A stretch of DNA of 64,000 bases from an uncultured delta proteobacterium. GTDB lineage: Bacteria > Desulfobacterota > WTBG01 > CAIYCZ01. The notes under the pieces were generated by a model. The model saw only the letters and a list, made by a program, of their open reading frames with translations, was not told the DNA's origin and searched no databases. The DNA is taken from contig CAWDOY010000015.1 of NCBI GenBank assembly GCA_963803975.1, positions 1 through 64,000 on the forward strand, given 5' to 3'. The position numbers were made by a program, and so were the translations under genes. Every line of letters begins with the position of its first letter. The first letter of the stretch is position 1. Positions 7,612-60,234 of this stretch are shown one piece after another.

Positions 7612-9652
7612 TTATCTGTTTCTAAAAAGCAGGCGTGGTGTTGCACTTATTGGCCCATGTAGGGTCGAGTTCCCCCAAGGTCTATGTCCTCCAGCTTGTA
7701 GTAGTAGGTCTTCCTGTTCTTCACACCTGGAATCTGTGAACTCATACGCTGCACCCTTCGTGGAAGAGCCCTTTGCGGGGATCAGTCGCTGTTTATCTTT
7801 ATATAGTCCCCATCTTCTGACTCTGCGCGGTAGATATTAAAGCCTGCGTTGTCGGTTTCAGTTTCGGTCGACCAGGTGAGGATTATCGTTTTTGTTCTGG
7901 GAATTGCTGCGAAACCGGAGAGACTGATCATCGTGGGCGGAAGGCTGAAACTCATACGCGCCCATATCATAGTAAGGATACACGCCGCTGCCGGTATTCG
8001 GAATCTCCGGCACATCAAAACGCTGCGTGCCTTTTATATCCATGGCGGGAGCGTTGCTGCTGGTCCCCGCATCAATGCAGGGCGAGCCTGGCTGCAGGCG
8101 AAAGTCATCGTCCGGGGTGCCGATAACATTGTCCGTCCCGTCAGCATCAACAAACAGCGGCTCCAAATTAATGTTTCCGGTTCCCGACCACCCGCCCTGA
8201 ATATCCGAAAACGTGATTAGCGGGTCAAAATAAGGGATTGACTGGCCTTTGACACAGTAATACCCCATGCAATCAATCTCTTTTCCTGACAGCCCGTCTG
8301 CCCAGAAAATGCTATTGGTGATAGTGAGGGGATAGACCGTCTGAACATAACGGGTTGCCAGGAGCCCGCCATTTCTATTATTCGTAAAGGTGCAGTTGGT
8401 AATAGTCAGAGATTCACCATTACGGTCATGGATTGCACCGCCGCCATAGCTGTACTGTTCAGCACTGTTGCCGGAGAAGACAGAGTTTGTAATGGTTACG
8501 GCGCTGTGTTCTGTATAGATGGCGCCGCCACCGTACTGAGCTGCACTGTTGCCGGTAAATGTGCAGCTGGAAATTGTCAGCGGGCTGTTATTATTATATA
8601 TGCCGCCGCCGGAACCTGCAGCGCTGTTGCCTGAAAAGATGCAGTCGGAAATGACTGGAGAGCTGTAATCATTATACATGCCTCCCCCGCCATCGTTGAT
8701 GTTATAGGAGGTGTTAGCGTTAATAATACAATGTAGAGATAGTGGGGGTGCAGCGGTAACCGGTGTGCCCGCATGGGAGGGTCACCGGGCGAGGCCGCCA
8801 CCCACAGGACTTCTCCCCCTGGTTATAACAAACCCGTCCAGCAGAGCATCCCGTGTTATTTTGAAGCATCCAGTCATAGACTGGCCGTCCACCGTCGTTG
8901 TATTGATTTTCCAATCCCGCTGGTTCCTCATTGTTTCCGTGCCGGCAAAACCGCCATAAACGGCAACCGCTTTATTGATCAGTATCTGAGAGGTGAGCAG
9001 GTAGGTGCCCTGCCTGACCCATACCTCCCCTCCCGAGGCATTTATGCCTTCCTGGATTGTCTTGAAAGCGGTTGCCCAGGTTGTGCCGCAGTTGCCGCTG
9101 CAGGCTGAGGCTTTGTCCACATATACAACCGCGTCACTGTCGCATATATCGCCGATACCATCCCCGTCGCCGTCCTGCTGATAGGGATTTGCAATAAAGG
9201 GACAGTTGTCAGAGCCCGTACACGACGGAGCGGATCATGCCGGGATCGCATATGCCGTCATTATCATCATCAGGGTCACAGGCATTGCCGCTGCCGTCCT
9301 GGTCATTGTCAGCCTGGTCAGGGTTGTAAACAGCAGGGCAGTTGTCGCATGCATCACCCAGAGGGTCGGAATCAGAATTTTCCTGACCGGGATTATAAAC
9401 AGGACAGTTGTCAACATCGTCAGTTACGCCATCCGCGTCATGGTCGTTACAGGCGTCTAAGCAGTAACTAAAGCCTTGATAGCAGTCTCTCACGCAAAAC
9501 GGATTAAATACGTCGCACCCTGCCAAACAGGCATCAAGCTCATCCTCGCACGTTTGGGCGCAGGTTGCATGCACGGTGTCCGTCAATACGAAAAGTACGC
9601 CTGAAAACAGAATCAGGCTTATGGCAGTTGCGGATACAATTTTGTGATGCAT
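7612..9652 (-). CDS. Secreted modular protein 2: Cys-rich N-domain, TSP3 repeats, parallel beta-helix (choice-of-anchor-Q-like), shared C-terminal domain (frameshifted)
   Basis: ORFs 9209-9652, 8782-9120, 7858-8679 and 7782-8018; FSGNSA/GGGIY repeats, [20 protein letters not shown]; ends [10 protein letters not shown]. Confidence 0.75.
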
Positions 9653-9836
9653 GCGTATCTCCCTGGATTAGTTTGAAGTGTTGTGTTTTTAGTTTGAAGA
9701 AATATCGAACTCAATGTCTCCAAATTTCAAGACCGAGCCACGAACCGTTAATCCCGAAGACTGAATATAAGACGAGGTTTGCTGCAACAGGCCCGTATAT
9801 TTTGTGGCCCGTGTCTCGGAACCCATGGCTTGCACT

Positions 9837-11928
9837 TTATTCACCCAACCCAAAGATAAGACGAGGAGTAGCCTTTATGGGACCGCGTAAGGTTGATACT
9901 CCATCGAGGTCTATGTCCTCCAGTTTGTAGTAATAGGTCTTCCTGTTCTTTACATCAGTATCAATAAACTCATACGCAGCGCCCTGCGCGGAAGAGCCTT
10001 TCGCGGGGATTAATGCATCGTTGATTTTGATATATTCTCCGCCTTCTGCTTCAGCGCGAAAGATATTGAACCCGGCGGTGTCGATTTCGGATGCGGTGGA
10101 CCAGGTAATATGAACGGTTCTGCTGGAGGGGGAGGCGGTAAACGAGGATAGTTCAATCAGCGTTGGTGTTTCCGCATAGCGGAGTATGGTCCCGGAGACT
10201 CCCACGGCAAACACATCGCTGCCTGAGCTGCCCCAGACTGAGCGCAGTTCATTTCCAGCCCTGCTGTTCATGGGTGACCAGGTGCTGCCATTGTAGTGAT
10301 AGATAATGCCGCAAAAGCCGGCGGCGAAAACATCTGTTGCCGAGCTGCCCCAGACAGCACACAGCCCGCAGTCTGACGGGGGTGTCATGGTCATTGTTGC
10401 CCAGCTATTGCCATCAAAGCGCAGGATTACATTTTCAGTAAAAGTATACCCCACGGCAAACACATTGTCTGCCGAGCTGCCCCACACGCCGCGGAAATAT
10501 GCAGGGTATCCGGTTTGTACCGGAGACCAGCTGCTGCCGTTATAATGGAGCATGCTGCCTTGGCCGACAGCATAGACATCAGTGGATGAGCTGCCCCACA
10601 CGCCATAAAGCGGATTAGTAGTGCCGCTGCTCATTTGCGACCATGTTGTCCCGTCATAATGGAGGATAAGGCCATCATTTCCCACCGCAAAGACATCTGT
10701 GGCAGAACTGCCCCACACACAGTTTAGACCGCTTAACCCCAGATACGGTGTCATAGGGGACCACGAGGTCCCGTTGTAGTGATAAATGACCGGGAGGTAA
10801 TAACAGCCCATGGTGCAGATGCGGCCGGTACTTCCCACGGCAAAGACATCGTGTGCAGAACTCCCCCAGACGGAATAAAGAGTGTATTGACCTGCTGGGG
10901 TAGCAGACCACTCTGTTCCATCATAATGATAGATTGTGTTGCCTCCCACCGCAAAGACATCCGTGGCAGAGCTGCCCCACACGCCGTTTAAGTCATTTAA
11001 TGTAAAATTGCTTGACAGGGGTGCCCAGGGCCATCCGCTGATCCCGTTATAGTGATGCATGGAGCCGTTATTGCCCGCCGCATAGACATCGCTGCCTGAG
11101 CTGCCCCAGATGCTGTTGGCGGAAACAACACTGCTCGAAGACCAGGTGCTGCCGTTATAGCGATAAATACCCGCTGCGCTTCCCGCGTAAACATCAGCGC
11201 CGCCAGATCCCCAGAGGCAGCGAAATTCCGCTGTAGTGCCGCTGGTCATGGCAGACCAGGAGCTTCCGTTGTAGTGATAGATTTTTCCGCTGCTGCCCGC
11301 CGCAAAAACATCATCAGCGGCGCTTCCCCAAACAGCGTAAAAGAATTGCCCGGTGGTGGGCATCGCGGTCCAGCTTGAACCGTCATAATGCAGAATGTTC
11401 CCGCTGTAGCCCACGGCAAAGACATCAGTCGCGGAACTGCCCCAGACCGCAGTAAGCCCGAAGCCGTACGGATTAGTTGTCGCGGACCAAACGCTGCCGT
11501 CGTAATGCAGAATGGTGGCTTCACCCACGGCAAACACATCACTTCCCGAGCTGCCCCAGATGCCGTAAAGATGTACCGCGGTGCCGCTGGCCATGGCAGA
11601 CCAGGAAGCGCCGTTATAATGCAGAATGGTGCCGAACGACCCAACGGCAAAGACGTCGCTTCCCGAACTGCCCCAGGTGCTGTTTAAAATATTGGTTGTG
11701 CCGCTCTCCATGAAAGACCAGGCGCTGCCGTTATAGTGGAGGATGGTGCCGCCGGCGCCCACGGCGAACAAATCGGTTGCTGTAGCTGCCCCAGATGCCG
11801 TTGAGATGATTTCCCTGCGGCAGGGGATTCAGCCACGTCCATTCCTGGCAAAAACCGGAATGATTCACTCCTGATAAAAACACCAAAAACAAAATAGTCA
11901 GTAAAACAGAAGACTTTTTATTCACCAT
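9837..11928 (-). CDS. Secreted modular protein 3: about 13 WGSS-xxDVFAVG beta-propeller repeats plus shared C-terminal domain (one frameshift)
   Basis: Signal-peptide ORF 11731-11928 joins the 644-aa ORF. Confidence 0.8.
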
Positions 11929-12182
11929 ATCCCTCCGTTTTTAGGTGCGTGGCCAATGACCCGTGACTGGTGACTCGGGATGCTAAATATTGAGTGCTGC
12001 TCCCAACCCCAAAAGCTTTCCCTGCTCCGAACTCCCCGTCCTCCGCAGCAGAAAACTGCGGTGGATGGACGATCTTAATTTCTTCGAACTTTTAAACCAC
12101 TAATCTCGAAATTATAAAATAAGCCGCAGCCTTAAGGAGACCGGCCATACTATTTCGTCTTTCGTGACTCGCGGCTTGCACT

Positions 12183-12931
12183 TTATTTACCCAGCCCAAA
12201 GATAAGACGAGGAGTAGCCTTTATGGGACCATGTAAGGTTGATACTCCATCGAGGTCTATATCCTCCAGCTTGTAGAAATAGGTCTTTCTGTTCTGCACA
12301 TCAGCATCAACAAACTCATACGCTGCGCCCTGAGCGGAAGAGCCTTTCGCGGGGATTAATGCATCGTTGATTTTGATATATTCTCCGCCTTCTGCTTCAG
12401 CGCGGTAAAGGTTGAAGCCGATGTTGTCTAATTCAACCTCGGTACACCACATAATAATTACCGTCTTTTTTTTGTAATGGCTGAAAAAGCAGATAGATCA
12501 ATAAGTGTCGGGTCACAGACATCACCAGTGCCGTCCCCGTCAATGTCTTCCTGTGCTTTGCTGCAAAACCCGCCAGCACCGCATTGACCGTTGTAACTGC
12601 ACTGAATGCCTGTGTTTGTCCCCGCAGTGCAGGTTCCCTTGCGAGGGCCGTTTAGGATGTCAGGACAGTTGTCATTTTCGTTCAGGATGCCGTCAACATC
12701 CCCGTCATTCTCAGCAATAAATGCACAGCAATATTGACAACTCGTTATGCATCCCGCATATCCGCCTGGACCAGCACCACTGCAGAACTGATAACAGCCT
12801 ATGGCGCAGGCACCAGTGGGAAAAGTTTCACACGAACCATACTGAGCATACACGTCTCCGCAATTATTATTAAAAAAGGCGGTGCCAATAAGGAATGCAG
12901 TAACAATAAAGATATTACATTTCTTGTACAT
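12183..12931 (-). CDS. Secreted modular protein 4: Cys-rich domain, TSP3-like repeats, shared C-terminal domain (frameshift near 12455)
   Basis: ORFs 12458-12931 and 12183-12452; GGAGG RBS; signal peptide. Confidence 0.75.
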
Positions 12932-12943
12932 AAAAACCTCCCT

Positions 12944-15339
12944 TCAATTTCCCAATCCGTAAATCAGACGTGGTGTTGCACTTATTGGCCCATGTAGGGT
13001 CGAGTTTCCCCCAAGGTCTATGTCCTCCAGCTTATACCAGTAGGTCTTCCACTTTCGCACCGTTGAATCGGTAAACTCATACGATGCACCCAGTGAAGCC
13101 AAACCTTTCGCGGGAATCAACTCGCTGTTTATCTTTATATAGTCGCCATTTTTTGACTCTGCGCGGTAGATGTTGAAACCCTGCGTTGTCGGTTTCTGTT
13201 TCCGTAGCCCATTGCAATATAACTTTGCCTGCTTTCGCTGTCGCAGTAAATGAAGACAGATTAATGACTGTCGGCCCACCTGATTCTGCCTGCAAATAGC
13301 TGCCGCCTATCCCGCCGATGCTGGTCACCCCCTTGCTTGCTAAATCAATCTCTACCGGCGGGGAATGATACACCCACACCTTGCTCTGATACAGTTCGGT
13401 TACGATTACCCCATCATCGGTGGTCGCGGAAATGGTAAAGTTCATGAAATTCTTTGTGCTTATAGACGAGATGTCGCCCCTGATGTCGCGTTGGTTTATT
13501 AATGCTCCGCTGGCATCAAAATAGAACAGATGGCTTAAATACTGTCCGCCGTCAGTATTGCCGATCCCGACAAATTTGCTATTCTGCATCCCCGTCAGTA
13601 TAAAGATGGTTATATTGCTGGAGGTGATATTGACTTTATTGATCAGGTTGAGGGAGTTGTCATAAAAGTAGAGATATGGGGTCAGCCCTGCTCCCCCGAA
13701 ATAAGTGGCGCCGTATTCTGGTAGAACCACAAAGCCTCCGCCTGCCAGTCCTGCCATGTCCCCCATTTTCGACATAGCTATAACTCCACCCCTCAGGATC
13801 AGTCCACGCATTAGTTGTTCCGACTACAGTGCCTGAGGCATTATAAAGAGTAATCTGTCCGGTAGCCACTGGCACTGGTCACGAAATTGCCATTGCTTAG
13901 GCCTGCGTAATTAGGCCCCGGGGCCATGGAGGAACCGCTGAAGGTGTTGCGCAGGGCACCTGATGAATCAATGTGCCAGATTTTCCAGTCACTGCCGCTT
14001 TGCCCCTTCAACAACCAGCCGCTACTTCCGGCATCTCGTATAAAATACGGGTGATCCAAGAGGGCTGAAATCAGCGGTATTAAGAAGATTGCCGGCAAGG
14101 TCAAAGATGAAGACCTTCCGCGCTTTTTCATCAAGCACTGCAAATCGGCTTCCCTGATCACATACATCACCAAAACCGTCCCCATCTGCATCAACTTGGT
14201 CAGGGTTATAAACCGTGGGGCAGTTATCAATAGTGTCATTGACACCATCATTATCATATTCAGTGGGGAAGTTATCACAAGTATCACCCATACCATCCAT
14301 ATCAGCATCAAGCTGATCAGGATTATAGGTGTTTATGCAATTATCACATACATCACCAACCCCATCCACATCAGCATCCTGCTGATCAGGATTAGATATG
14401 TGCATACAATTATCTTGTGTATCAACAAGGCCATCGCTATCCTCATCACCATCATAATGGAGGATTATGCCATACGCACCTGCTGCAAAAACATCCGCAG
14501 CAGAACTGCCCCAAACCCCATATAGATCATTTGTTGTCCCGCTTGACATGGTCTGCCAGCTGTGGCCATCGTAGCGGAGGACAGTGCCACGATCACCCAC
14601 TGCAAAAACATTGCTTGCTGAGCTGCCCCATATATCAAGGAAAGTGGTATTTTTAATGCTGAATATCAGAGACCAGATAGTTCCATCATAATGGAAAATA
14701 CCATCATTACCCACTGCAAAAATATCGTTTGCCGAACTGCCCCATATACCATAAAAAATCTGTGTAGCTCCACTAATCATGGGAGTCCAGGTAAGGCCAT
14801 TATAATGGAGGATTGTGCCTTTATGCCCTACCGCAAAAACATCTGTAGCAGAACTGCCCCAGACAGCCATGAGCTGATTTGTCGTGCCGCTGGTCATGGC
14901 AGCCCAGGTGCTGCCGTTGTAGCGACTAATTGCGCCATCTACACCCACTGCAAAAATATCGTTTGCCGAACTGCCCCATATGCCATAAAGCTGCTTTGCA
15001 ATTCCACTATTCATAGAAGTCCAGGTACTGCCATTGTAACGTCGGATTATACCCGCAGGTCCCACAACAAAAACATTACTGCCCGAACTGCCCCAGATTC
15101 CTGAACCGAAGTAATTCGCCATTAATCCCCACGAACTGCCGTTGTAGCGGAAAATGCTCACTACCCCCTACTGCAAAAACATTGTTTGCTGAGCTGCCCC
15201 AGACATCGAAGAACCAGGCTGTTGTATTGCTGTTCATCACAGTCCAATCAGTGTCATCAGCAAAGGCGCTCGTAGAGGATATCAGTACTAATGCTGCCAG
15301 TAAAAAAGACGGGATAAAAAACTTTTTGAATATTTTCAT
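12944..15339 (-). CDS. Secreted modular protein 5: WGSS repeats, TSP3 repeats, beta-rich domain, shared C-terminal domain (frameshifted)
   Basis: MKIFKK signal peptide at 15339 with GGAGG RBS; ORFs 14022-15161, 13841-14311, 13077-13811 and 12944-13279 join. Confidence 0.75.
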
Positions 15340-15672
15340 AAATTCCTCCCATAAAAAAACTTTTGACAGTATCAAAAAAATAAACCCCCACCAGCCACAC
15401 AGACTGATAGAGGTTTTCATATAATCACAACAAAATAATTTATTGATGTCACCGGACATTCCCCAAAATACAATAAATTTTTGTAAATTTTACAATAAAT
15501 CGCAAGGTTAAGTCAATTAAATAAATATATATTTTTGCAAGCTATAATAATTCTATGCTTTCTATGTAAATATAAGTTAAAGCACTGTACAATATTGCAA
15601 ACTTGGGCTATAAATAAATTGCAAATTCATAAAACAGTCCTGTATCCTGCCTCCATTACAGAATAATATTAT

Positions 15673-16935
15673 ATGCCGTCAAAAAAAGGTATTATCGTGC
15701 TCATGGGCTCGGGAGAGCTGACCGCCACCATGGTCGAGGTGCACAAGGCTTTGCTGGCGGGCCTTGGCGGGCGGCCGCGGGCAGTGTTTCTGGATACACC
15801 CGCCGGGTTTCAGCTCAATGTTGACCAGATTTCCCGGAAAGCTGTTGAGTACTTTGACACCCGCGTACAATATCCCCTCTCGATAGCCTCCTTTAAAGGA
15901 ACCGCTATCTGCACCCCCTATGAAGCAGAGCAGGCATTCCGCACCCTGCGTGAAGCTGATTATGTCCTCATCGGTCCCGGCAGCCCGACCTATGCCGTGC
16001 GCCAGTGGCTGCAGACATCCATTCCCGATATACTCACGAGGCGCGTCGAGGAGGGCGGCTGCCTGGTGGCTGCCAGCGCCGCAGCCCTGACCGTCGGCCG
16101 CTTCACCATGCCGGTATATGAAATCTACAAAGTGGGCACAGAACTCAACTGGGCGGAAGGCATGAACATTCTCGGCCGCTTCGGCTTTAACCTGGTGGTG
16201 ATTCCCCACTGGAACAATGCTGAGGGCGGTAACCATGATACCCGGTTCTGCTATATGGGTGAACCGCGCTTCAGAAAGCTTGAAGCCCTGCTGCCGGATG
16301 ATGCGGCAATCCTCGGGCTTGATGAGCATACCGCCTGTATCATTGACCTTGACCAGGATGAGGCGGTTATCAGGGGAATCGGCGCTATGACCCTCAGGTA
16401 TCACGGCTCAGAGACAATCATTGAGAAGGGCGGGCGCTTTTCGCTGGATGTGCTGCGCGGAAAAGCTGCACGGGCCGGGATGCAACAGCCGGCGCAGAAG
16501 TCAATGCCGGCCGCAGCGGCAGCGGATGCGCAGCAAGAAACATTCTGGGACACCATTCACGCCCTTGAGGAAGCATTTAATAACGGCATTGAAAAGCATG
16601 ACCTGAAAGAAACCGCCTCAGCTGTTCTTGAGCTTGACAAACTCATCTGGAAAGCGCAGGAAGACGGTGAAAGCCCGGAGTTCATTTCCCAGGCGCGGGA
16701 TATTTTCAGGGACATGATTGTACTGCTGACGACAAAGCTTGATGCAGCGCCGGAAAATTCCGCTGCGTGTCTTGCCCCGCTGGTGGAGGAGCTGCTGGCG
16801 CTGCGGCAGCGCTTCCGTGCAGGAAAACAGTGGCAGGAGGCGGATGCCATCCGCGACACCCTGCAGCAGGCAGACATACTCATCGAGGACACCGAAGGCG
16901 GCTCGCGCTGGCGGCTCAATCCTGAACTGAAATGA
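15673..16935 (+). CDS. Peptidase S51/cyanophycinase-like (class I GATase fold) domain fused to a cysteinyl-tRNA synthetase C-terminal-like domain
   Basis: LMGSGE, GPGSPTY, AASAAA and IPHWNN motifs; C-terminus LRQRFRAGKQWQEADAIRDTL...IEDTEGGSRW resembles the CysRS C-terminus. Confidence 0.7.
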   Translation: MPSKKGIIVLMGSGELTATMVEVHKALLAGLGGRPRAVFLDTPAGFQLNVDQISRKAVEYFDTRVQYPLSIASFKGTAICTPYEAEQAFRTLREADYVLIGPGSPTYAVRQWLQTSIPDILTRRVEEGGCLVAASAAALTVGRFTMPVYEIYKVGTELNWAEGMNILGRFGFNLVVIPHWNNAEGGNHDTRFCYMGEPRFRKLEALLPDDAAILGLDEHTACIIDLDQDEAVIRGIGAMTLRYHGSETIIEKGGRFSLDVLRGKAARAGMQQPAQKSMPAAAAADAQQETFWDTIHALEEAFNNGIEKHDLKETASAVLELDKLIWKAQEDGESPEFISQARDIFRDMIVLLTTKLDAAPENSAACLAPLVEELLALRQRFRAGKQWQEADAIRDTLQQADILIEDTEGGSRWRLNPELK

Positions 16936-16945
16936 GGGGGACTGC

Positions 16946-18598
16946 ATGATTACGCATCCATCACTGCCAATACTTATCGCAACGGAAGCAAACAGTCACG
17001 GACTGCATCCTTTATATCCTATCTGCAGATCCATCAGCCACGTTAACCTCACTGTCGCATCGCAGGTTCCCGCTGATACCAGCGCCTTTAAAGTTATTAT
17101 CACAACGGATACATGCCTGTCCGCGCCAGTCGCAAAACAGCTTGAGCAGTTCGTCAGTGCCGGCGGAGGGCTGCTGCATCTGGCCTGCAGCAGCGCTAAA
17201 CCGCTGCCCGCATTTTTCGGCGCACAGCCGGGTCCTGCGGGGCCTGCTGCTGAGCTGCGGGTACTTTTTGAAAACAGAAACCATCCGCTGGCAGCGCGCC
17301 TGCCCGATGCCATCTATGTATCGAGCAGCCATGTTCCTCTCGAGATAACTGCTGATGATGTGGAGACCATCCTCTACGCAGACTGGCACTATACGCACAC
17401 CCCGGTCCTTATCAGGCGCAGGATTGACAGCGGCCATGCCGCCTGCACCACCATCCAGGCCTTTGACAACCCTTTCTTTCAGCAGATACTGTACCGCCTG
17501 CTCTCTGATTTGGCGGGGATGAATCTTTTTAATAAAACTCTGGGAGTCGGCATCCTGGGATATGCGCCGTCTGTGGGCAGGCTGCATGGACAGGGCATAG
17601 GGGCAACGCCGGGGCTTATCCTGCGGGCTGCCGGTGACCTTAACCCGGAACGATTGCATGAGGCAAGCAAGGATTTTCCCGGCATCCACTGTTATGAATC
17701 GGCGGATAAGCTGCTGCATGATCCTGAAGTAGATCTGGTTATCATTGCCACCGCGCCGAACACGCATGCCCGGCTGTGCCTGCAGATGATGGCTGCGGGC
17801 AAGCACGTGGTCTGCGAAAAGCCGCTGGCGTTAAACAGCTCTGAGACCGCTGCCATGGTTGAGATGGCAGACAGGAAGCAGGTGCACCTGAGCTGCCATC
17901 AGAACCGGCGCTTTGATGCTGACTACCTGGCGATAAAGCAGGCTCTTGCCGAAGGGCTTATCGGCGAGCTGTTTTATATGGAGACGTTTGTCGGCAGCTA
18001 TAACCACCCCTGCGGCTACTGGCATTCCCATGCCGGGATTTCCGGCGGCACCACCTATGACTGGGGAGGGCATTATCTTGACTGGATTGTCAGCCTCATC
18101 CCGGAAAGAATAACACACGTCATCGGCACCCGGCACAAGCGCGTCTGGCATGATGTCACCAATGCCGACCAGGAGCGCATACAGCTGCGCTTTGCCGGAG
18201 GGCAGGAGGCGGAATTCATGCACTCTGACATTGCCGCTGTCCGCAAGCCCAAATGGTATCTGCTGGGCACGGAGGGCGCGATAATCGGCACCTGGCGGGA
18301 GGTAACGGTCAACGAGCTTGACCCGGTGCTCTATTACCATGAGCAGGAAATACCGCCGACCGAAATGACTCCCGCGCTGGTCCTGCAGCGCCGCCATTGT
18401 TCCGGGGAGATTGTCAGCCAGAAGCTGGCGATTCCCAAACGGCAGGACTATCAGTTTCACCGCAACCTCGCCGACCACCTGCTCTTCGGAGAACCGCTTG
18501 CGGCGCCGCTCGCAGATTCGATCCGGGTGGTGGCCATCCTTGCGGCAGCCGCCCGCTCGGCAGCGCAGGGCGGGACAATGGAGGCTCTTGATGTCTGA
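16946..18598 (+). CDS. Gfo/Idh/MocA oxidoreductase with an extra N-terminal (ThuA/GATase-like) domain
   Basis: GKHVVCEKP, HQNRRFD and DWGGHYLD motifs. Confidence 0.85.
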   Translation: MITHPSLPILIATEANSHGLHPLYPICRSISHVNLTVASQVPADTSAFKVIITTDTCLSAPVAKQLEQFVSAGGGLLHLACSSAKPLPAFFGAQPGPAGPAAELRVLFENRNHPLAARLPDAIYVSSSHVPLEITADDVETILYADWHYTHTPVLIRRRIDSGHAACTTIQAFDNPFFQQILYRLLSDLAGMNLFNKTLGVGILGYAPSVGRLHGQGIGATPGLILRAAGDLNPERLHEASKDFPGIHCYESADKLLHDPEVDLVIIATAPNTHARLCLQMMAAGKHVVCEKPLALNSSETAAMVEMADRKQVHLSCHQNRRFDADYLAIKQALAEGLIGELFYMETFVGSYNHPCGYWHSHAGISGGTTYDWGGHYLDWIVSLIPERITHVIGTRHKRVWHDVTNADQERIQLRFAGGQEAEFMHSDIAAVRKPKWYLLGTEGAIIGTWREVTVNELDPVLYYHEQEIPPTEMTPALVLQRRHCSGEIVSQKLAIPKRQDYQFHRNLADHLLFGEPLAAPLADSIRVVAILAAAARSAAQGGTMEALDV

Positions 18599-19637
18599 GA
18601 AAGTAAAATGGGGAATTCTCGGCAATGCTACTATTGCCCGGGTGTGCGTCATCCCTGCCATCCAAAAATCACGCAACGGCATGGTGCATGCCCTGGGTAC
18701 CCGTTCTCCTGCAGCTGCCGGAGAAGTGGCTGCAAAAAACAATATTATATATATATACGGCGACTATGAAGCAGTGCTTGCCGACCCTGAAATTGATGCA
18801 GTCTATATTCCCCTGCCCAACCATCTTCATCTGCCCTGGACCGTAAAAGCACTGCAGGCAGGAAAGCACGTGCTCTGCGAGAAGCCGCTTGCCTGCAACG
18901 CCCGGGAGGCGCGCGCCATGGCAGAGGCCGCAGCCGAAGCAGGCCTCCTGCTTATGGAAGCGTTCATGTACCGCTTTCACCCGCGCAGCCAGCGCATAAA
19001 GCAGCTCATTGCCGACGGGTTCATCGGCACGCCGTGCCTGGTGCGCTCGGCATTCTGCTACCATATAGGAGAAGAGCTGCTCGCAACAGCAGACAACTAC
19101 CGCCTCCGGCCTGATATGGGCGGCGGCGCGCTGTTGGACGTGGGGTGCTACAGCGTGAGCCTTGCGCGCTGGCTCCTGGATGCAGAGCCGGCCGCAGTCC
19201 AGGCTCAGGCCATCTGCCATCAAGGTGGAGCTGATGTGCACGTCGCGGGCACGCTGCGCTTCCCCGGCAGCGAGCTTGCAGCGTTTGAAGCAAGCTTCAT
19301 CTCGGCCTTACAGCAAACCTATACTGTTGTGGGAAGTGATGGAGCCATTGACCTGCCCCACGATGCATTCATCCCCTGGGAAAATGATGCGCGGTTTTCC
19401 GTGCGGGAGCGAACCCAGGAAAAAGGCACTGAGTACGTCATTCCCGGTGCTGATGAATATCAGCTGATGGTTGAGCATTTCAGCGACGCCATCCAGGGGA
19501 ATACAGGACTTGCTGTTCCGGTTGAAGACAGCTTGTGCACCATGCAGGTGCTTGATGCCCTCGCTGAAGCAGCTAAAACAGGCTGCACCATAACATTGCC
19601 TGAGTGTAAACTCGGCTGTAGCCCTGGAAGTATTGTG
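18591..19637 (+). CDS. Gfo/Idh/MocA oxidoreductase (3' end uncertain; reads in frame into the next gene)
   Basis: KWGILG, YIPLPNHLH, GKHVLCEKP, EAFMYRFHP and GGGALLDVGCY motifs. Confidence 0.85.
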
Positions 19638-20654
19638 ATGGAATGTGCAGGTACAAAACTGCAGAAAACAGAAAATCGGTTACATGTCAACGCCGAGACA
19701 TTTGAAACTCTTGCAGGCTACTGGCGTGAACAGCGCAGTAATCTGCAACTGGCAGTGCCTGTTTGTTATTCCTGCCTGGCTTACGGTGTGGTGGAATGTT
19801 TTCAGGCCGGAATCAGAGCAGTGCCTGCTGTCTGTCAGCGAAGGATCTGAACTCATCGGCGTCGCGCCGTTAATGGTGAACGGCAGGACAGCGCAGCTCA
19901 TGGGCAGCCCTGATGTCTGTGACTGCCTTGACGTTATCGTTGCGCCGGGGAAGGAGCAGTTGTTCTGCCGGGCGCTGCTTGACCATCTGCGCGCGCAGGG
20001 AATCAGCACGCTTGAGTTAGGACCGGTGCGGCCTGATTCAACAGTGTATACCCATGTTATCGGTGCAGCCAAAAGCTTTTGCCCGCGAGGTTATTTGCAC
20101 ACCGGAAGATGTTGTGTTAGAATTACCATTGCCGGCAACCTGGGATGCGTTCCTCAACATGCTTGCAGCAAAGGAGCGGCACGAGATACGGCGCAAGCTC
20201 AGGCGCCTTGAGGAAGCAGGCCGGGTTGATTACCATGCGGCAGAAGATGATTACAGCGGTCAGGAGCGAACTGGATACGTTCCTGTCATTGTTCAGGCAG
20301 AATCGCGCGGATAAGGCTGCATTCATGACCGGGAAGATGGAATCTTTTTTCCGGTCAGTTGCAGAAGAGCTGGCAGGAGCAGACATCCTGAAACTTTTCT
20401 TTCTTACCCTCAATGATGAGCCGGCAGCAGCCGTGATGTGCTTTGACTATCAAGAGACCAGATATCTCTATAACAATGGTTATAATGAGCGCTTCAGCCA
20501 GTTCAGCGTGGGACTGCTCAGCAAGGTGCTGAACATTAAAGAGAGCATAGAGCGGCGCAGCAGGAAATATGATTTTCTAAAGGGCGCAGAAGTATATAAG
20601 CACCGTCTCGGCGGCGAGCCAGTACCGCTGTACCGGTGTTGCATCGAACTGTGA
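19638..20654 (+). CDS. GNAT of the CelD/BcsL (Acetyltransf_6) type (frameshifted)
   Basis: PAWLTVWW, LIGVAPL, LPATWDAFL..KERHEIRRKLRRL, YLYNNGY..FSVGLL and YDFLKGAEVYKHRLG across three frames. Confidence 0.8.
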
Positions 20655-20920
20655 AAAGGCACACAGGTGAATGCGGTGAATAGGTGCTACGCCTCGGTAA
20701 GCAGGTACTGCGGAGGACGGGGTGAATGGGTGAATCGGAATTTCACTTTTCACCTTCCACTTTTCACGCGTCACTGGCCACTCGCCACTATTCACTGATT
20801 TCGGATGAATCGGCCTCTTGACTATGCTCGGGGCAGGTGAAGAGGTTTTACCTTTTAGCCTATTAACCTTTTGTCCTTTTAACCTTTTATTTTTACTCAG
20901 CACTCAGAACTCAGCACTTA
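20655..20920. repeat. Intergenic degenerate 7-8-bp tandem repeats
   Basis: GGTGAAT and TTCAC(C/T)T units and TTAACCTT units; segments shared with 1-45, 50048-50110, 52775-52840 and 54885-54942. Confidence 0.7.
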
Positions 20921-20933
20921 ACCAGGGGGTTTC

Positions 20934-22205
20934 ATGAATTCCAGTCAGCTAAGAATCGCCATGCTCAGCGTGCACTCCAGCCCGCTTGGAGAGCTTGGCA
21001 CCAAAGACACCGGCGGCATGAGCGTCTATATCCGCGAACTCGCCAGAGAACTGGGCAAACAGGGACACCTGGTTGATATTTACACCCGGCAGAACCATCC
21101 GGCAGGCGAACAATGCGTGCCTGTTTCCCGGAATGTCTCCCTCATCCACATAGAAGCCGGCACCAGCGGCTACATAGACAAACTCGCCCTCTATCCCCAT
21201 CTTGCAGAATTTTTCCAGCAGATGGAGCGGTTCAGGATGCGTGAAAACCGGCGCTATGACATCGTTCACAGCAATTACTGGCTTTCAGGAAAAGTGGGCG
21301 CCTGGGCGCAGATGCACTGGCATGTGCCCCATTTCGTTCTATTCCACACCCTCGGCGCGGTTAAAAATATGTTTCCAATCGGCAGCCCCGAGCCGGCACT
21401 GCGCATAGCAACCGAGAAGATGGTTGCTAAAACCTGCAGCGTGATTCTGGCAGAGACAGAGCGGGAGCGCAGGCAGCTGACCGAGCTGTATGATGCTGAC
21501 CTGGATAAAATTAAGGTGATACCCTGCGGCGTAAACTTTGACCGCTTCCGGCCGCTTGACCGGAACCAGGCCCGCGGCAGGCTCGGCATACCTGCAAACG
21601 AGCGTATTCTATTATATGTGGGCAGGCTTGATCCGCTCAAGGGCGTTGACCGGCTCATCACCGCGCTCAGCTTTCTGGACCACCAGCAGAACCTGCGGCT
21701 GCTCATTGTCGGCGGGGATGGAAGCGAAACAGCAGAGTTCCGCAGCCTGCAGGAGCTGACGCAAAACCTGGGTCTTGAAAATTCCGTCACCTTTACGGGA
21801 AGGGTTGATCACAACGATCTGCCGCACTATTACAGCGCCGCGGATATGCTGGTGCTGCCCTCGCATACGGAAAGCTTCGGCCTCGTGGGCCTTGAAGCTC
21901 TTGCCTGCGGCACGCCGGTAATCTCTACCCGGGTGGGCGCGATGGACCAGATCATCCGCAGCAATGAAAACGGGTTTCTGGTAAACAGCGCCGACCCCCG
22001 CTCACTGGCAGAGGGCATCGAGCTGTTCATGCCGCAGGTTCGTGACGGGTTCCTTTCCCGCGCGGCAATCCGCAACAGCGTCATAGAGTACAGCTGGGAG
22101 AAAGTTGCCGCGGCCATGGCTGATGCGTATCTCGGCGCGATCCAGCGCGCCTATCCCGGATTCGTTATTGGGACCACGAGCAGGCTTCCGGCGTTTGCAG
22201 GCTGA
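20934..22205 (+). CDS. MshA-like GT4 glycosyltransferase
   Basis: MLSVHSSPL..G..DTGGMSVYIREL, HSNYWLSG and PSHTESFGLVGLEALACGTPVI. Confidence 0.85.
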   Translation: MNSSQLRIAMLSVHSSPLGELGTKDTGGMSVYIRELARELGKQGHLVDIYTRQNHPAGEQCVPVSRNVSLIHIEAGTSGYIDKLALYPHLAEFFQQMERFRMRENRRYDIVHSNYWLSGKVGAWAQMHWHVPHFVLFHTLGAVKNMFPIGSPEPALRIATEKMVAKTCSVILAETERERRQLTELYDADLDKIKVIPCGVNFDRFRPLDRNQARGRLGIPANERILLYVGRLDPLKGVDRLITALSFLDHQQNLRLLIVGGDGSETAEFRSLQELTQNLGLENSVTFTGRVDHNDLPHYYSAADMLVLPSHTESFGLVGLEALACGTPVISTRVGAMDQIIRSNENGFLVNSADPRSLAEGIELFMPQVRDGFLSRAAIRNSVIEYSWEKVAAAMADAYLGAIQRAYPGFVIGTTSRLPAFAG

Positions 22206-22297
22206 CCGGCTTCATTCCTCCTGGACACTGCCTGTATATTTTTTTTGACTCCTGACGACGGCACTGGCTGTCTTGCTTACACATACGGAGTGTTGCT

Positions 22298-22993
22298 TTG
22301 GAAAAAACGGCTGACATACTGGTAATAGCGCCGCATCCGGATGATGCTGAATTCGGCGCAGCAGGGACCATTGCCCGCTGGACAAAGGAAGGCAAAAAAG
22401 CAGTTTATGTGGTCTGCTCAAGCGGCGAAAAAGGCACCAGTGACCGCAGCCAGCAGCCTGAGCAGCTCGCGGCTATAAGGGAAAAGGAGCAGATTGCTGC
22501 AGCGCAAACCGTGGGAGTTAGTGAAGTCCTGTTCCTGCGCTATCCTGACCAGGGGCTGGAAGACACCCCGTCATTCCGCAAAGAGATCGTCCGGCTGATC
22601 CGCACCTATCGGCCCGCAACGGTCGTTACCGCCGATCCCTATCGCCGCTACATCTGGCACCGCGACCACCGCATTACCGGCCAGGTGGTGCTTGATGCGG
22701 TCTTTCCCCTGGCCCGGGACCACCTCGCGTACCCGGACCTGCTTGCTGAAGGCTTCGAGCCGCACAAGGTGCAGGAGGTGCTGTGCTGGGCTTCTGAAGA
22801 TATAAATTACCGCTCTGATATCACGCACACCTTTGAACTGAAGCTCGCTGCGCTGCGCTGCCATGAGAGTCAGGTTAAAGAGTTCCATGTTCCCGACCTT
22901 GCGGAACGGCTGCGGCAGCGGTGCATGGAAATGGCCAAAGGTGAGAATTTCGGGCTGGCAGAAGCATTTCATCAGGTAAAGATAGCTATGTAG
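22298..22993 (+). CDS. PIG-L family (MshB/BshB-like) N-deacetylase
   Basis: APHPDDAEF, HRDH and CHESQ motifs. Confidence 0.9.
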   Translation: MEKTADILVIAPHPDDAEFGAAGTIARWTKEGKKAVYVVCSSGEKGTSDRSQQPEQLAAIREKEQIAAAQTVGVSEVLFLRYPDQGLEDTPSFRKEIVRLIRTYRPATVVTADPYRRYIWHRDHRITGQVVLDAVFPLARDHLAYPDLLAEGFEPHKVQEVLCWASEDINYRSDITHTFELKLAALRCHESQVKEFHVPDLAERLRQRCMEMAKGENFGLAEAFHQVKIAM

Positions 22994-23053: not shown

Positions 23054-23082
23054 TTGACATTTGAGTTAATTAACCATATAAT
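23054..23082 (+). promoter_or_regulatory. Perfect consensus sigma70 promoter
   Basis: TTGACA (23054-23059), 17-nt spacer, TATAAT (23077-23082). Confidence 0.8.
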
Positions 23083-23201: not shown

Positions 23202-23315
23202 ATGAAAAAAGAGTATGAAGCACCACAGGTAGTAACCTATTCGGAAGATGAAATCGTGGAGATGCTGGGACCGGCACAGACATGTTCACCAAGCCCGTGC
23301 CCGACCTATCAATAA
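23202..23315 (+). CDS. Unannotated 37-aa peptide, RiPP-precursor-like: MKKEYEAPQVVTYSEDEIVEMLGPAQTCSPSPCPTYQ
   Basis: GAGGAGGAG RBS just upstream of the ATG, consensus promoter upstream, terminator downstream; below the ORF-track size cutoff. Confidence 0.75.
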   Translation: MKKEYEAPQVVTYSEDEIVEMLGPAQTCSPSPCPTYQ

Positions 23316-57490: not shown

Positions 57491-57711
57491 GGTTAACCTC
57501 ATTTAACGCAATTAATTAGAATGATATAGGTTGATTTAAGCTGTCCTGACATAATATGCCCTCATATATTTATTATATATCATATTTCTTTAGTTGAGAA
57601 GCAACCAATGATCTCGGAAAATCTTTGTATGGCCCGGATGGCCACTTGAAAATCCCCCACCTGTGGCCGGGTCAAAATCCCCCACCCTGAGGCGGCAGAA
57701 CAGGTTTTTAA

Positions 57712-58486
57712 TTAGTTCTTTTTCTTTTCTAATGCAAGTCTTTTAGAAGCCTCCTTGAGCCGGTAACTCTTTCCTTCAAATTTCAGCAGATGACCCCGGT
57801 GCAGCAGGCGGTCAAGAATGGCCGAAGCCGCCGCATTGTCTCCAAGCAGTTTCCCCCAGTCTTCAATCGGCCGGTTTGAGGTGATCAGCGTGCTTTTTCG
57901 GTTGCGGTAACGCTCCAGAATCACATCCATAAGATCATCAGCGGCATGTTCCGGCAGACGCTTTTTTAAGAACAGATCATCGATGACCAGAAGATCGGTG
58001 CCACAGAACAGTTTTAACAGTTTTTTGCGTTTTCCGGTTTGCGTGGCTTCAAAGATGTCTTCAAAGAAACACTGTTCTTCCCGGTAGGCAACCTGATAAC
58101 CGGACTGGATCGCGGCATGCGCAATCGCCTTGGCCGTGTGGCTTTTGCCGGTGCCGGGTTGACCGATCAAAAGCGCATCGTCACCGTTTTGGACGAATTG
58201 CGGTTGTTAAGAGTTCAAAGACCTCCTTTTTGGGCAGCTTCGGGTTAAAGCACCAGTCAAAGTCGTTCATAAGCTTTTTCTCATCAAGACCCGATGCGTT
58301 AAAGCGGCGGTCAACAAGGCAGGAGAGCCTGAAGTCCAGTTCATCCTGGACAAGGGCTGTCAGGACATCAAGAACGGGACTCTTGTCCTGCTGTGCCTGG
58401 AGCAGGCGGGCCTGAAGGCTGCGGGCCATGCCGTGCAAACGAAGTGCTCGGAGGTGTTTTTCAACTTCTTCAAGTGTCATGGTCAT
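57712..58486 (-). CDS. istB: IS21 helper ATPase (frameshifted)
   Basis: GQPGTGKSH, LLVIDD and AILDRLLH..GKSYR. Confidence 0.9.
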
Positions 58487-58626
58487 AAGCTTACTCCTTT
58501 CTGTTTTTGGCTTTCATAAATGCCCCACAATCGACGATTCACTGCGGGGATACATTCAGGTACGCCTTCACCGTGTCTGTCCGGGCTTCTTGGGGAGATT
58601 GCAGGACTGAAGGCTTTGTCACTGCA

Positions 58627-60234
58627 TCACGACTGCTGAGCCGGCCGCATGGTGTTCAAAGAAAGCGCATAGTCCTGCGGCGAACGAATGAACTGGTGCT
58701 CCTGCGTAATGCTCGGGATGTCTCTGGGGTGGGTCTTTTGTCTAATTCCGGCAAGGTCAGTGACTATCCGGCGGATGATACTCACGGTGCGAAGTCCTTT
58801 TTCAAAGGCCATCCGGGCGGCCTGCTCAATATGGATGGCACAATGCTGGCGTACCATGCTCACAATGCCCTGCATGCGACGGTGCCCCTGGCGACCCTCT
58901 CCCTCAAACAGTTGCTTGCACAGTGCTTTTCCGTAATGGGACCGATCGCCGCGGCCCGGGCCAATAGATAGCACGTCTGCCGGGAAGGATTAAATATCCG
59001 GTCTTTTTCCTCCATCAGGACCATGCCCTGCCGGCTGCCTTTGGGGTGCCGCCGCAAAACGGTCAGGGTTTGAGGATCAATGATTTCAATCTCGTAGTCG
59101 TAAATGCGCACCATGACCTTGGTATGCAGCCGGGCGGGAAGTGCTGCATAATAGCAGTCCTGGACCTGAATGGTGCCGTCATCCTGGACCGTGCGGGTTT
59201 CCTGGCGGAAGAAGAGCAAATTTCTTGAGCGGCAGAATCTGGAGAAACGGTTTTTCTTCTGCAAACATCTCCTGCGACCTGTCGTTTCGTTCGGCCGTGT
59301 ATCCGCTGGGCCGCCCAGCGTCTCTTCCCAGTGCATAAGCAACCTGTTTTGTTCTTCAATGCTTTCAAACCGGCGGCCTTTCAGGGCGGTGTTCTGGGTG
59401 TGCTGGATGGCGTTTTCAACGCTGCCCTTGCGGTCGGGATCTGCCACGCGGGCCGGGTCTGCCACGACACCGTAATGGGCAAGCAGAGCTGCATAAACCG
59501 GGTTTAGCTCCGGCTCATAGAGATCGGGCTTTATGACACCTTCCTTCAAATTATCCAGAACCACATACTGGGGGCATCCGCCAAAATACCGGAAGGCCTC
59601 TTCATGCAGTTGGGCCCATACCACCTGGCTGGATTTCCAGACCACCTTTCGGAAACAGCGGCGGGAGTACTTCAGCGTCATGACAAACAATCGGGGACGG
59701 CGGTATGTGTTTGTCCCGGGATTACGGGTGAGAGCGCCCAGACCATAGTCCACCTGGGCCTCCTCTCCGGGCAGAAACTCCAGCCGGTCATACTGCTGCG
59801 GATGTTTTTTGCGCAGCGCACGGCAAAACGTTTCACGCTGTTGTATCTGCTGGTAAAGGCAAACCGCTCAACCAGGTCCTGATAAATGGAGACGGCATTG
59901 CGGCCCAGGCGCACCTGCTCCTCTATCCAGGGGCGGTGCTCTTCGCAGGCTGAGCGGGCATGGGCCGGAATCTGATTGCTTCCTGATCCCGACCCTGAAA
60001 AGCCGGTGGCCGGGGTGGGGGATTTTGACCGACACTACTCTTCGGAGCCGGTGGCCACCCCGGGGGATTTTGACTCTGTTGCGCTCGGTCTGCTGTCAGC
60101 AGGTTATGCAACCGGGCGTACTTGCGGATGGTCTTGCGATCCACGCGTGCCTTGCGGCTGATCTCGCGCTGACTGATTCCATTGGTAAGTAATGTAATTA
60201 TTGCTGCTTTCTTGTTCGGTTGCAAAACGTTCAT
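58627..60234 (-). CDS. istA: IS21 DDE transposase (frameshifted)
   Basis: HTH DRKTIRKY, PGEEAQVDY, FGGCPQYVVLDNLK and KGSVE. Confidence 0.9.

Follow-up and report, generated by a model that had tools for sequence, protein, structure and literature searches.

A mycothiol-like gene set with a candidate tRNA-dependent ligase in the place of MshC in an uncultured delta proteobacterium

How might a small thiol be completed where the sugar-building enzymes of mycothiol synthesis are encoded and no MshC is found to add the cysteine? This question is raised by six genes at positions 15673–22993 of contig CAWDOY010000015.1, the first 64,000 nucleotides of which (the window) were analysed, from an uncultured delta proteobacterium of the Desulfobacterota (genome of 4.25 Mb, 98% complete). 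A preliminary description of the window had named a fusion of an S51-type peptidase with the C-terminal domain of cysteinyl-tRNA synthetase (S51-CysS_C; CysRS for the synthetase), two Gfo/Idh/MocA dehydrogenases, a GNAT, an MshA-like family 4 glycosyltransferase (GT4), and a PIG-L deacetylase, read together as a tRNA-dependent route to a thiol or solute. The observation is confirmed, all six genes lying there on the + strand, and the interpretation is partly supported. The result is a mycothiol-like gene set with a tRNA-type ligase candidate in MshC's place—meaning a testable candidate route to a small thiol, predicted from the genes.

Three genes form the core of this set. The first encodes a Fem-like tandem GNAT (Acetyltransf_6; about 19635–20654, +), by family and fold a candidate aminoacyl-tRNA-dependent ligase. 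It is followed after 279 nt by the MshA-like retaining GT4 (20934–22205, +), a candidate UDP-GlcNAc:inositol-phosphate transferase, and after a further 92 nt by a predicted Zn-dependent GlcNAc de-N-acetylase of the PIG-L/LmbE type (22298–22993, +), whose gene is sometimes unlinked in other genomes. A GNAT profile built on 19 sequences matches 39 of 201 genomes of the same phylum and 48 of 151 Chloroflexota genomes, and 20 of 41 related genomes hold an MshA-like gene (E ≤ 1e-60). An MshA-type GT4 stands directly 3′ of the GNAT in 17 of 20 GNAT-selected loci (four divergent, with 26–29% identity) and in 27 of 30 loci of a second such set, from Chloroflexota. A wider tally covers 69 loci, one per genome, some clipped by contig ends and some selected by GT4 or S51. 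Herein, the 49 own-phylum loci hold GT4 in 41 (plus 4 divergent), PIG-L in 26, S51-CysS_C in 15, a glyoxalase-II-like metallo-β-lactamase-fold (MBL) hydrolase in 11, a nitroreductase in 7, an inositol monophosphatase in 5, and ino1 in 4; the 20 Chloroflexota loci hold GT4 in 19, PIG-L in 13, MBL and an MshD-like gene in 1 each, and S51 in none. PIG-L is encoded elsewhere in five of five genomes in which it is not adjacent, one match being weak. Hence, the core is GNAT–GT4(–PIG-L), with S51-CysS_C and the two Gfo genes as add-ons; the recurrence expected of all six genes holds for the triad, in two phyla. A description of this cassette was not found in the literature searched, the coverage of which leaves out most subscription papers.

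The GT4 has TIGR03449 (MshA) as its best family, with 349.7 bits under a cut-off of 462.5, compared with 119.7 bits for BshA (cut-off 273.7), 116 for sucrose-phosphate synthase, and 97 for GlcNAc-PG synthase. Four close relatives score 339–354 bits against TIGR03449, at least about 190 bits above any other family, and one divergent relative scores 162. The nearest solved structure is Corynebacterium glutamicum MshA (3c48, E 4e-76), the inositol-phosphate site of which we take to consist of His9, Asp20, Lys78, Tyr110, His133, Thr134, and Arg154. These residues align with His14, Asp25, Lys83, Tyr115, His138, Thr139, and Arg157 of the GT4, a site that sucrose-phosphate synthase may share in part; His14, Tyr115, His138, and Arg157 are invariant across 24 sequences. 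The deacetylase matches PF02585 with an intact metal motif (HPDD...HRDH). It scores 48.8 bits against the MshB equivalog (cut-off 224), and its nearest solved relatives are archaeal diacetylchitobiose deacetylase and LnmX, followed by BshB1 and, further off, MshB.

The acceptor would have to be supplied by Ino1. The ino1 gene looked for in this genome is present on contig C46, unlinked to the locus. It occurs in 32 of 34 GNAT carriers compared with 88 of 166 other genomes, related genomes not being independent; this count leaves out four low-scoring GNAT matches, three in other contexts and one not inspected. All five Chloroflexota carriers examined hold it, and in six genomes of two families it is directly convergent on GNAT–GT4. 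Separately, an ino1–GT4–CDP-alcohol phosphatidyltransferase operon in Chloroflexota (L312–L315) is a candidate glycosyl-phosphatidylinositol lipid pathway, its GT4 presumably PimA-like by motif.

The absence of MshC reported in the preliminary description stands. Neither MshC, BshC, nor gshB was found in this genome; the MshC model matches only cysS, the single CysRS gene, and the BshC model matches nothing. The 80 carrier genomes screened, with positive controls, hold no protein at or above the MshC cut-off and no match to BshC. Four of the 80 hold an extra CysRS paralogue of about 400 residues (L285–L288), which scores 367–397 bits against the MshC model, below cut-off, lacks the anticodon domain, and is of MshC-like length; it was not seen beside the triad within 3–4 kb. 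Some carriers hold further long CysRS paralogues.

The GNAT is the candidate for the missing step. A model of an orthologue (G002) shows the double GNAT fold. The proposed comparison with FemX-type enzymes bore out the earlier idea: the nearest structures are aminoacyl-tRNA-dependent transferases, including amino-sugar acylating ones, and acyl-CoA enzymes lie about 6 Z units lower. In common with FemABX and the streptothricin-type transferases (Orf11 of BD-12; Sba18, Sbb17), it has this fold and what may correspond to their basic tRNA helix and C-terminal Lys; the amino-sugar acceptor of the streptothricin-type enzymes (9wqx, 9wqy) resembles that predicted here. Across 70 GNAT sequences, the helix in domain 2 has a net charge of +2 to +7 and Lys315 is invariant, its presumed equivalence to FemX Lys305 and DhpH Lys329 following from motif position, not superposition. 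Asp90, His176, Glu177, Lys220, Asn273, and Glu312 are further invariant residues of the GNAT. Identity to the known enzymes is only 12–15%, and theirs is a secondary-metabolite or peptidoglycan context with Gly/Ala-type donors. No Cys-tRNA user is among the GNAT-fold enzymes listed in the accessible part of PMC12945691. By sequence and model, the GNAT is a candidate for an aminoacyl-tRNA-dependent ligase that takes the place of MshC.

In this assembly, the GNAT frame is broken by three single-base insertions (19748, 20081, and 20249) relative to a 95%-identical relative (L005). In L005, in turn, 25 nt are deleted close to the end of the GNAT. Base 20249 is missing from public contigs in four of four independent runs, 20081 in three of four, and 19747/19749 in one of four. 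Indels are frequent in this assembly: the frame shifts in 6 of 42 genes tested, and the housekeeping cysS is split too. Hence, the insertions are most likely assembly errors and the gene most likely intact. The GNAT–GT4 spacer (20655–20933), which varies among strains, carries short purine-rich and pyrimidine-rich repeats.

The reading we prefer, with a probability of about 0.45, is a mycothiol-like pathway of tRNA-dependent Cys-GlcN-inositol synthesis. Ino1 would provide inositol-1-phosphate, onto which the GT4 would transfer GlcNAc from UDP-GlcNAc; a housekeeping phosphatase would remove the phosphate and PIG-L would deacetylate the product to GlcN-inositol. The GNAT would then take cysteine off Cys-tRNA(Cys) and attach it to the amine of the sugar. 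The resulting Cys-GlcN-inositol (des-acetyl-mycothiol) may be N-acetylated by an MshD-like enzyme in some carriers, a minority to which this genome perhaps belongs. We infer all substrates and products from what is observed, namely the genes, their synteny, the absence of MshC and BshC, the folds, and the residue conservation.

Several further genes may link the locus to cysteine. An unlinked MshD-like tandem GNAT (C9:16154–17095) scores 94 bits against a cut-off of 163, has Mycobacterium tuberculosis MshD as its best solved match, and carries the Q/R-x-x-G-x-G/A CoA motif. It is located behind a gene for a glyoxalase-II-like hydrolase, which is single-copy in this genome and is found next to the triad in six families; in G341, the best MshD-like relative, the hydrolase, and PIG-L stand together about 4 kb from GT4–GNAT. 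In one family (f30), the gene immediately 5′ of cysS is that for PIG-L in five of five genomes inspected, all without the S51 fusion. A Dps-like ferritin and a member of the glutathione peroxidase family are among the products of flanking genes in the window.

A number of points weigh against this pathway. The scores for MshA, MshB, and MshD are all under curated cut-offs, and the MshD-like query of this genome finds nothing in 200 other genomes of the phylum. The ino1 gene is common overall (121 of 201 genomes). In five of eight ino1 regions, a CDP-alcohol phosphatidyltransferase is encoded alongside it (three proteins scanned, two judged by similar position and length), and this genome carries such a gene as well; therefore, the inositol may serve lipids. 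The basic helix and Lys315 are also present in three Acetyltransf_6 proteins of the out-group, of which two come from multi-glycosyltransferase loci of polysaccharide type, and thus mark the family, not this function. Two 98%-complete genomes (G121, G084; L073, L074, L308) keep S51–GNAT–PIG-L and have no MshA-like gene, an operon that may reflect a loss or be a salvage module. All S51-adjacent GNATs fall into one clade, shared with Chloroflexota sequences (FastTree, 73 GNAT domains), which suggests a single cassette; since the PIG-L–cysS pairing is likewise confined to one family, about two events account for both. In Chloroflexota, the fusion and the GNAT co-occur weakly (15 of 32 vs 33 of 119). 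Together, the cysteine links—S51, PIG-L–cysS, hydrolase, MshD-like, and flanking genes—are circumstantial and represent few independent events, and cysteine as the amino acid, hence the thiol nature of the product, is proposed from them.

The most visible of these links is the fusion itself (15673–16935, +, 420 residues), present as first described. Its CysS_C part (PF23493) is above cut-off and its N-terminal S51 match (PF03575, E 4e-4) below. The modelled fusion folds like the S51 peptidases 6nqc, PepE, and cyanophycinase, with which it has the Ser-His-Glu triad in common, and weakly like CysRS (1u0b). Ser135, His179, and Glu218 are kept in 120 of 120 close homologues and in 30, 30, and 27 of 30 Chloroflexota homologues, respectively. 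In the tail, Arg378, Arg382, Trp387, Asp391, Arg394, and Asp406 map, with an offset of 45, to Escherichia coli CysRS Arg423, Arg427, Trp432, Asp436, Arg439, and Asp451. Of the latter, Arg427, Trp432, Asp436, and Arg439 belong to the anticodon domain according to the accessible part of PMC13449415, and the GCA-reading residues are shared. At a mean tail identity of 18%, Arg378, Arg382, Asp391, Arg394, and Asp406 persist in 29–30 of the 30 Chloroflexota homologues. With both its triad and its anticodon readers kept, the fusion is very probably, by sequence and model, a serine hydrolase docking on tRNA(Cys). The fusion is not a synthetase: only residues 279–414 match cysS, and the Rossmann domain with HIGH/KMSKS and the Zn site is missing. 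MshC keeps the CysRS core and lacks the tail, whereas S51-CysS_C is the reverse. No such fusion is described in the literature searched. In two loci (L075:6490–8580 and L081:214–3586), a second, short S51 gene lies directly upstream of S51-CysS_C, preceded in L081 by a glutaredoxin–thioredoxin-reductase fusion.

The family comprises at least 7,931 clusters and is commonest, by the Atlas, in Actinomycetota and Chloroflexota. The fusion occurs in 24 of 201 phylum genomes; 19 of 23 fusion genomes also hold the GNAT, compared with 19 of 177 others. In 20 regions around the fusion, it adjoins the GNAT in 7 and is unlinked in 13; in 30 Chloroflexota loci, it is never linked. It is seldom beside the GNAT and the Chloroflexota co-occurrence is weak; hence, a general ligase or required partner, as which it was also considered, is ruled out by this unlinked, triad-independent distribution. 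The earlier idea that the CysRS tail hands Cys-tRNA to the GNAT finds no support as a general mechanism, the triad occurring without the fusion in many genomes. S51-CysS_C would rather be an accessory enzyme for editing or recycling damaged or N-blocked Cys-tRNA.

Which other readings fit these data? Unlikely, and still the best placed, is the same backbone and tRNA-dependent GNAT with a non-cysteine donor (Gly, Ala, or Ser), giving a non-thiol aminoacyl-GlcN-inositol solute or cofactor with S51-CysS_C as a passenger. Orf11, the nearest characterised amino-sugar acylating relative, uses Gly-tRNA, the GNAT fold matches Sbb17/Sba18, and the triad is widespread without the fusion; two separate genomic links to Cys-tRNA proteins and the recurrent glyoxalase-II-like and MshD-like neighbours speak for cysteine instead. 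Improbable is an acyl-CoA- or acyl-ACP-dependent GNAT making N-acyl-GlcN-inositol as solute or amphiphile. The CoA motif occurs in the last 90 residues of only 4 of 70 GNATs, the structural ranking favours aminoacyl-tRNA enzymes by the margin given above, deacetylation followed by re-acetylation would be futile, and no acyl-carrier or acyl-ligase gene was noted among the annotated neighbours (30 scanned).

Less probable again is S51-CysS_C acting as the cysteinyl transferase, from Cys-tRNA via a Ser acyl-enzyme to GlcN-inositol, with the GNAT doing another step. The intact triad, the invariant anticodon readers, and the own-phylum co-occurrence (19 of 23) would suit it, but 20 of the 32 carrier genomes that were searched are without the fusion (15 selected for lacking it), as are small closed Chloroflexota genomes with the triad; the fusion is widespread without the triad, and only the GNAT is universal. 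Lower still ranks a lipid route, in which GT4 and PIG-L make GlcN-phosphatidylinositol, like a glycosylphosphatidylinositol core, and the GNAT aminoacylates the lipid as aaPGS/MprF do. Against it, the basic residues that suit a phosphomonoester acceptor are retained in the GT4, which scores 350 bits with MshA vs 97 with GlcNAc-PG synthase, the core proteins have no transmembrane segment (maximum hydropathy 0.8–1.5), and the Chloroflexota ino1 operon has its own separate GT4. Envelope polysaccharide modification, raised in the preliminary description, is very improbable: exopolysaccharide loci often hold a GT4, a deacetylase, and CelD/BcsL GNATs, and related GNATs occur in two such loci (L138, L139), but 63 of 65 loci have a single GT4, both multi-glycosyltransferase loci belong to out-group GNATs, and the neighbours are housekeeping genes.

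The Gfo pair is optional. The first gene (16946–18598, +, 550 residues) joins a weak ThuA-like N terminus (E 1e-4) to a dehydrogenase of the YvaA/YdgJ group; YvaA is, we assume, the scyllo-inositol dehydrogenase IolW. It contains a compensated frameshift pair (17004/17025) missing from public contigs. The second, of the GFOR/1,5-anhydrofructose reductase group (18591–19637, +, end approximate), begins with an ATG at 18591 and overlaps the preceding stop by 8 nt, the only clear overlap among genes first described as partly overlapping; as assembled here, its frame stays open as far as 19850. Both dehydrogenases fall short of every inositol-dehydrogenase cut-off. Beside the GNAT, ThuA-Gfo stands in 7 and the second Gfo in 6 of the 49 own-phylum loci, and the pair was not found in five of five carrier genomes; a general role as cyclitol maker finds no support. 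It travels with S51-CysS_C, once without the triad (L164), and is likely, by sequence, to serve cyclitol, sugar, or glycoside redox chemistry or catabolism; it is not required.

Further features were seen in passing. The f30 genomes have three CysRS-like genes each, and cysteine synthase–CysRS fusions of about 780 residues with degenerate HIGH and KMSKS lie beside a normal cysS (L153–L158, G216). This genome encodes two identical 95-nt tRNAs with a GCA anticodon and a tRNA-Sec-like long variable arm (C42:2679–2773 and C56:5188–5282; L320 is listed with them), adjoining rhodanese-like genes, and a normal tRNA-Cys; one of five genomes examined (G003) has the long-arm form too. These probably belong to the known selC-like tRNA-Cys class (PMC5389517). 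Downstream of PIG-L, a 37-residue open reading frame (23202–23315, +) with a YxxP leader-like motif and a Cys/Pro-rich end follows a promoter-like perfect sigma-70 consensus (23054–23082); NCBIfam gave no match. We take it to resemble a precursor of ribosomally synthesized and post-translationally modified peptides. The stretch is missing between PIG-L and DUF5661 in L005. On the − strand, 7858–15459 holds secreted repeat-rich genes with GSSxxDVFAVG and calcium-binding-like repeats, several apparently frameshifted, the single one scanned having no Pfam match. Two open reading frames at about 57700–59750 resemble, by their N-terminal sequence only, an IS21-type transposase and ATPase pair.

How does the predicted pathway relate to known thiols? 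It works like that of mycothiol (Ino1, MshA, MshA2, MshB, MshC, MshD; Actinomycetota) and is not a member of it, no MshC being found. In common are an MshA-type GT4 with a conserved acceptor site, PIG-L, a predicted ino1 dependence, and perhaps an optional MshD-like tandem GNAT. Different are the lack of MshC, the Fem-like GNAT coupled to GT4, the mostly missing MshD-like gene, a deacetylase nearer to archaeal Dac/LnmX than to MshB, and the occurrence outside Actinomycetota; the accessible part of PMC6282198 reports mshA–D and complete msh pathways only in Actinobacteria. With bacillithiol (BshA, BshB, BshC), it shares GT4, PIG-L, a cysteine-adding step, and, if unacetylated, a free cysteine amine, but BshA scores only 120 bits, BshC is absent from the 80 carriers, and the context is inositol, not malate.

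The low-molecular-weight thiols of most anaerobes are unidentified, and the accessible part of PMC6336425 lists an unidentified thiol for Chloroflexus aurantiacus and other anaerobes. In its widest form, which we regard as possible though doubtful, the proposal is that mycothiol or des-acetyl-mycothiol would be made without MshC by many anaerobes of the Chloroflexota (Dehalococcoidia included) and of scattered Desulfobacterota-like lineages through the first Cys-tRNA-dependent Fem-type transferase, a thiol buffer drawn from the translation pool. In the present clade, an S51 enzyme reading the tRNA-Cys anticodon would guard this pool as a new trans-editing or transacylating factor. The S51-CysS_C family is predicted to be a separate tRNA-Cys-reading enzyme. 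If the Cys-GlcN-inositol pathway is true, it would be a third solution to cysteine ligation after MshC and BshC, with a Fem-type enzyme using a new donor, and Cys-GlcN-aglycone thiols would extend to organohalide respirers and sediment syntrophs via a three-gene route.

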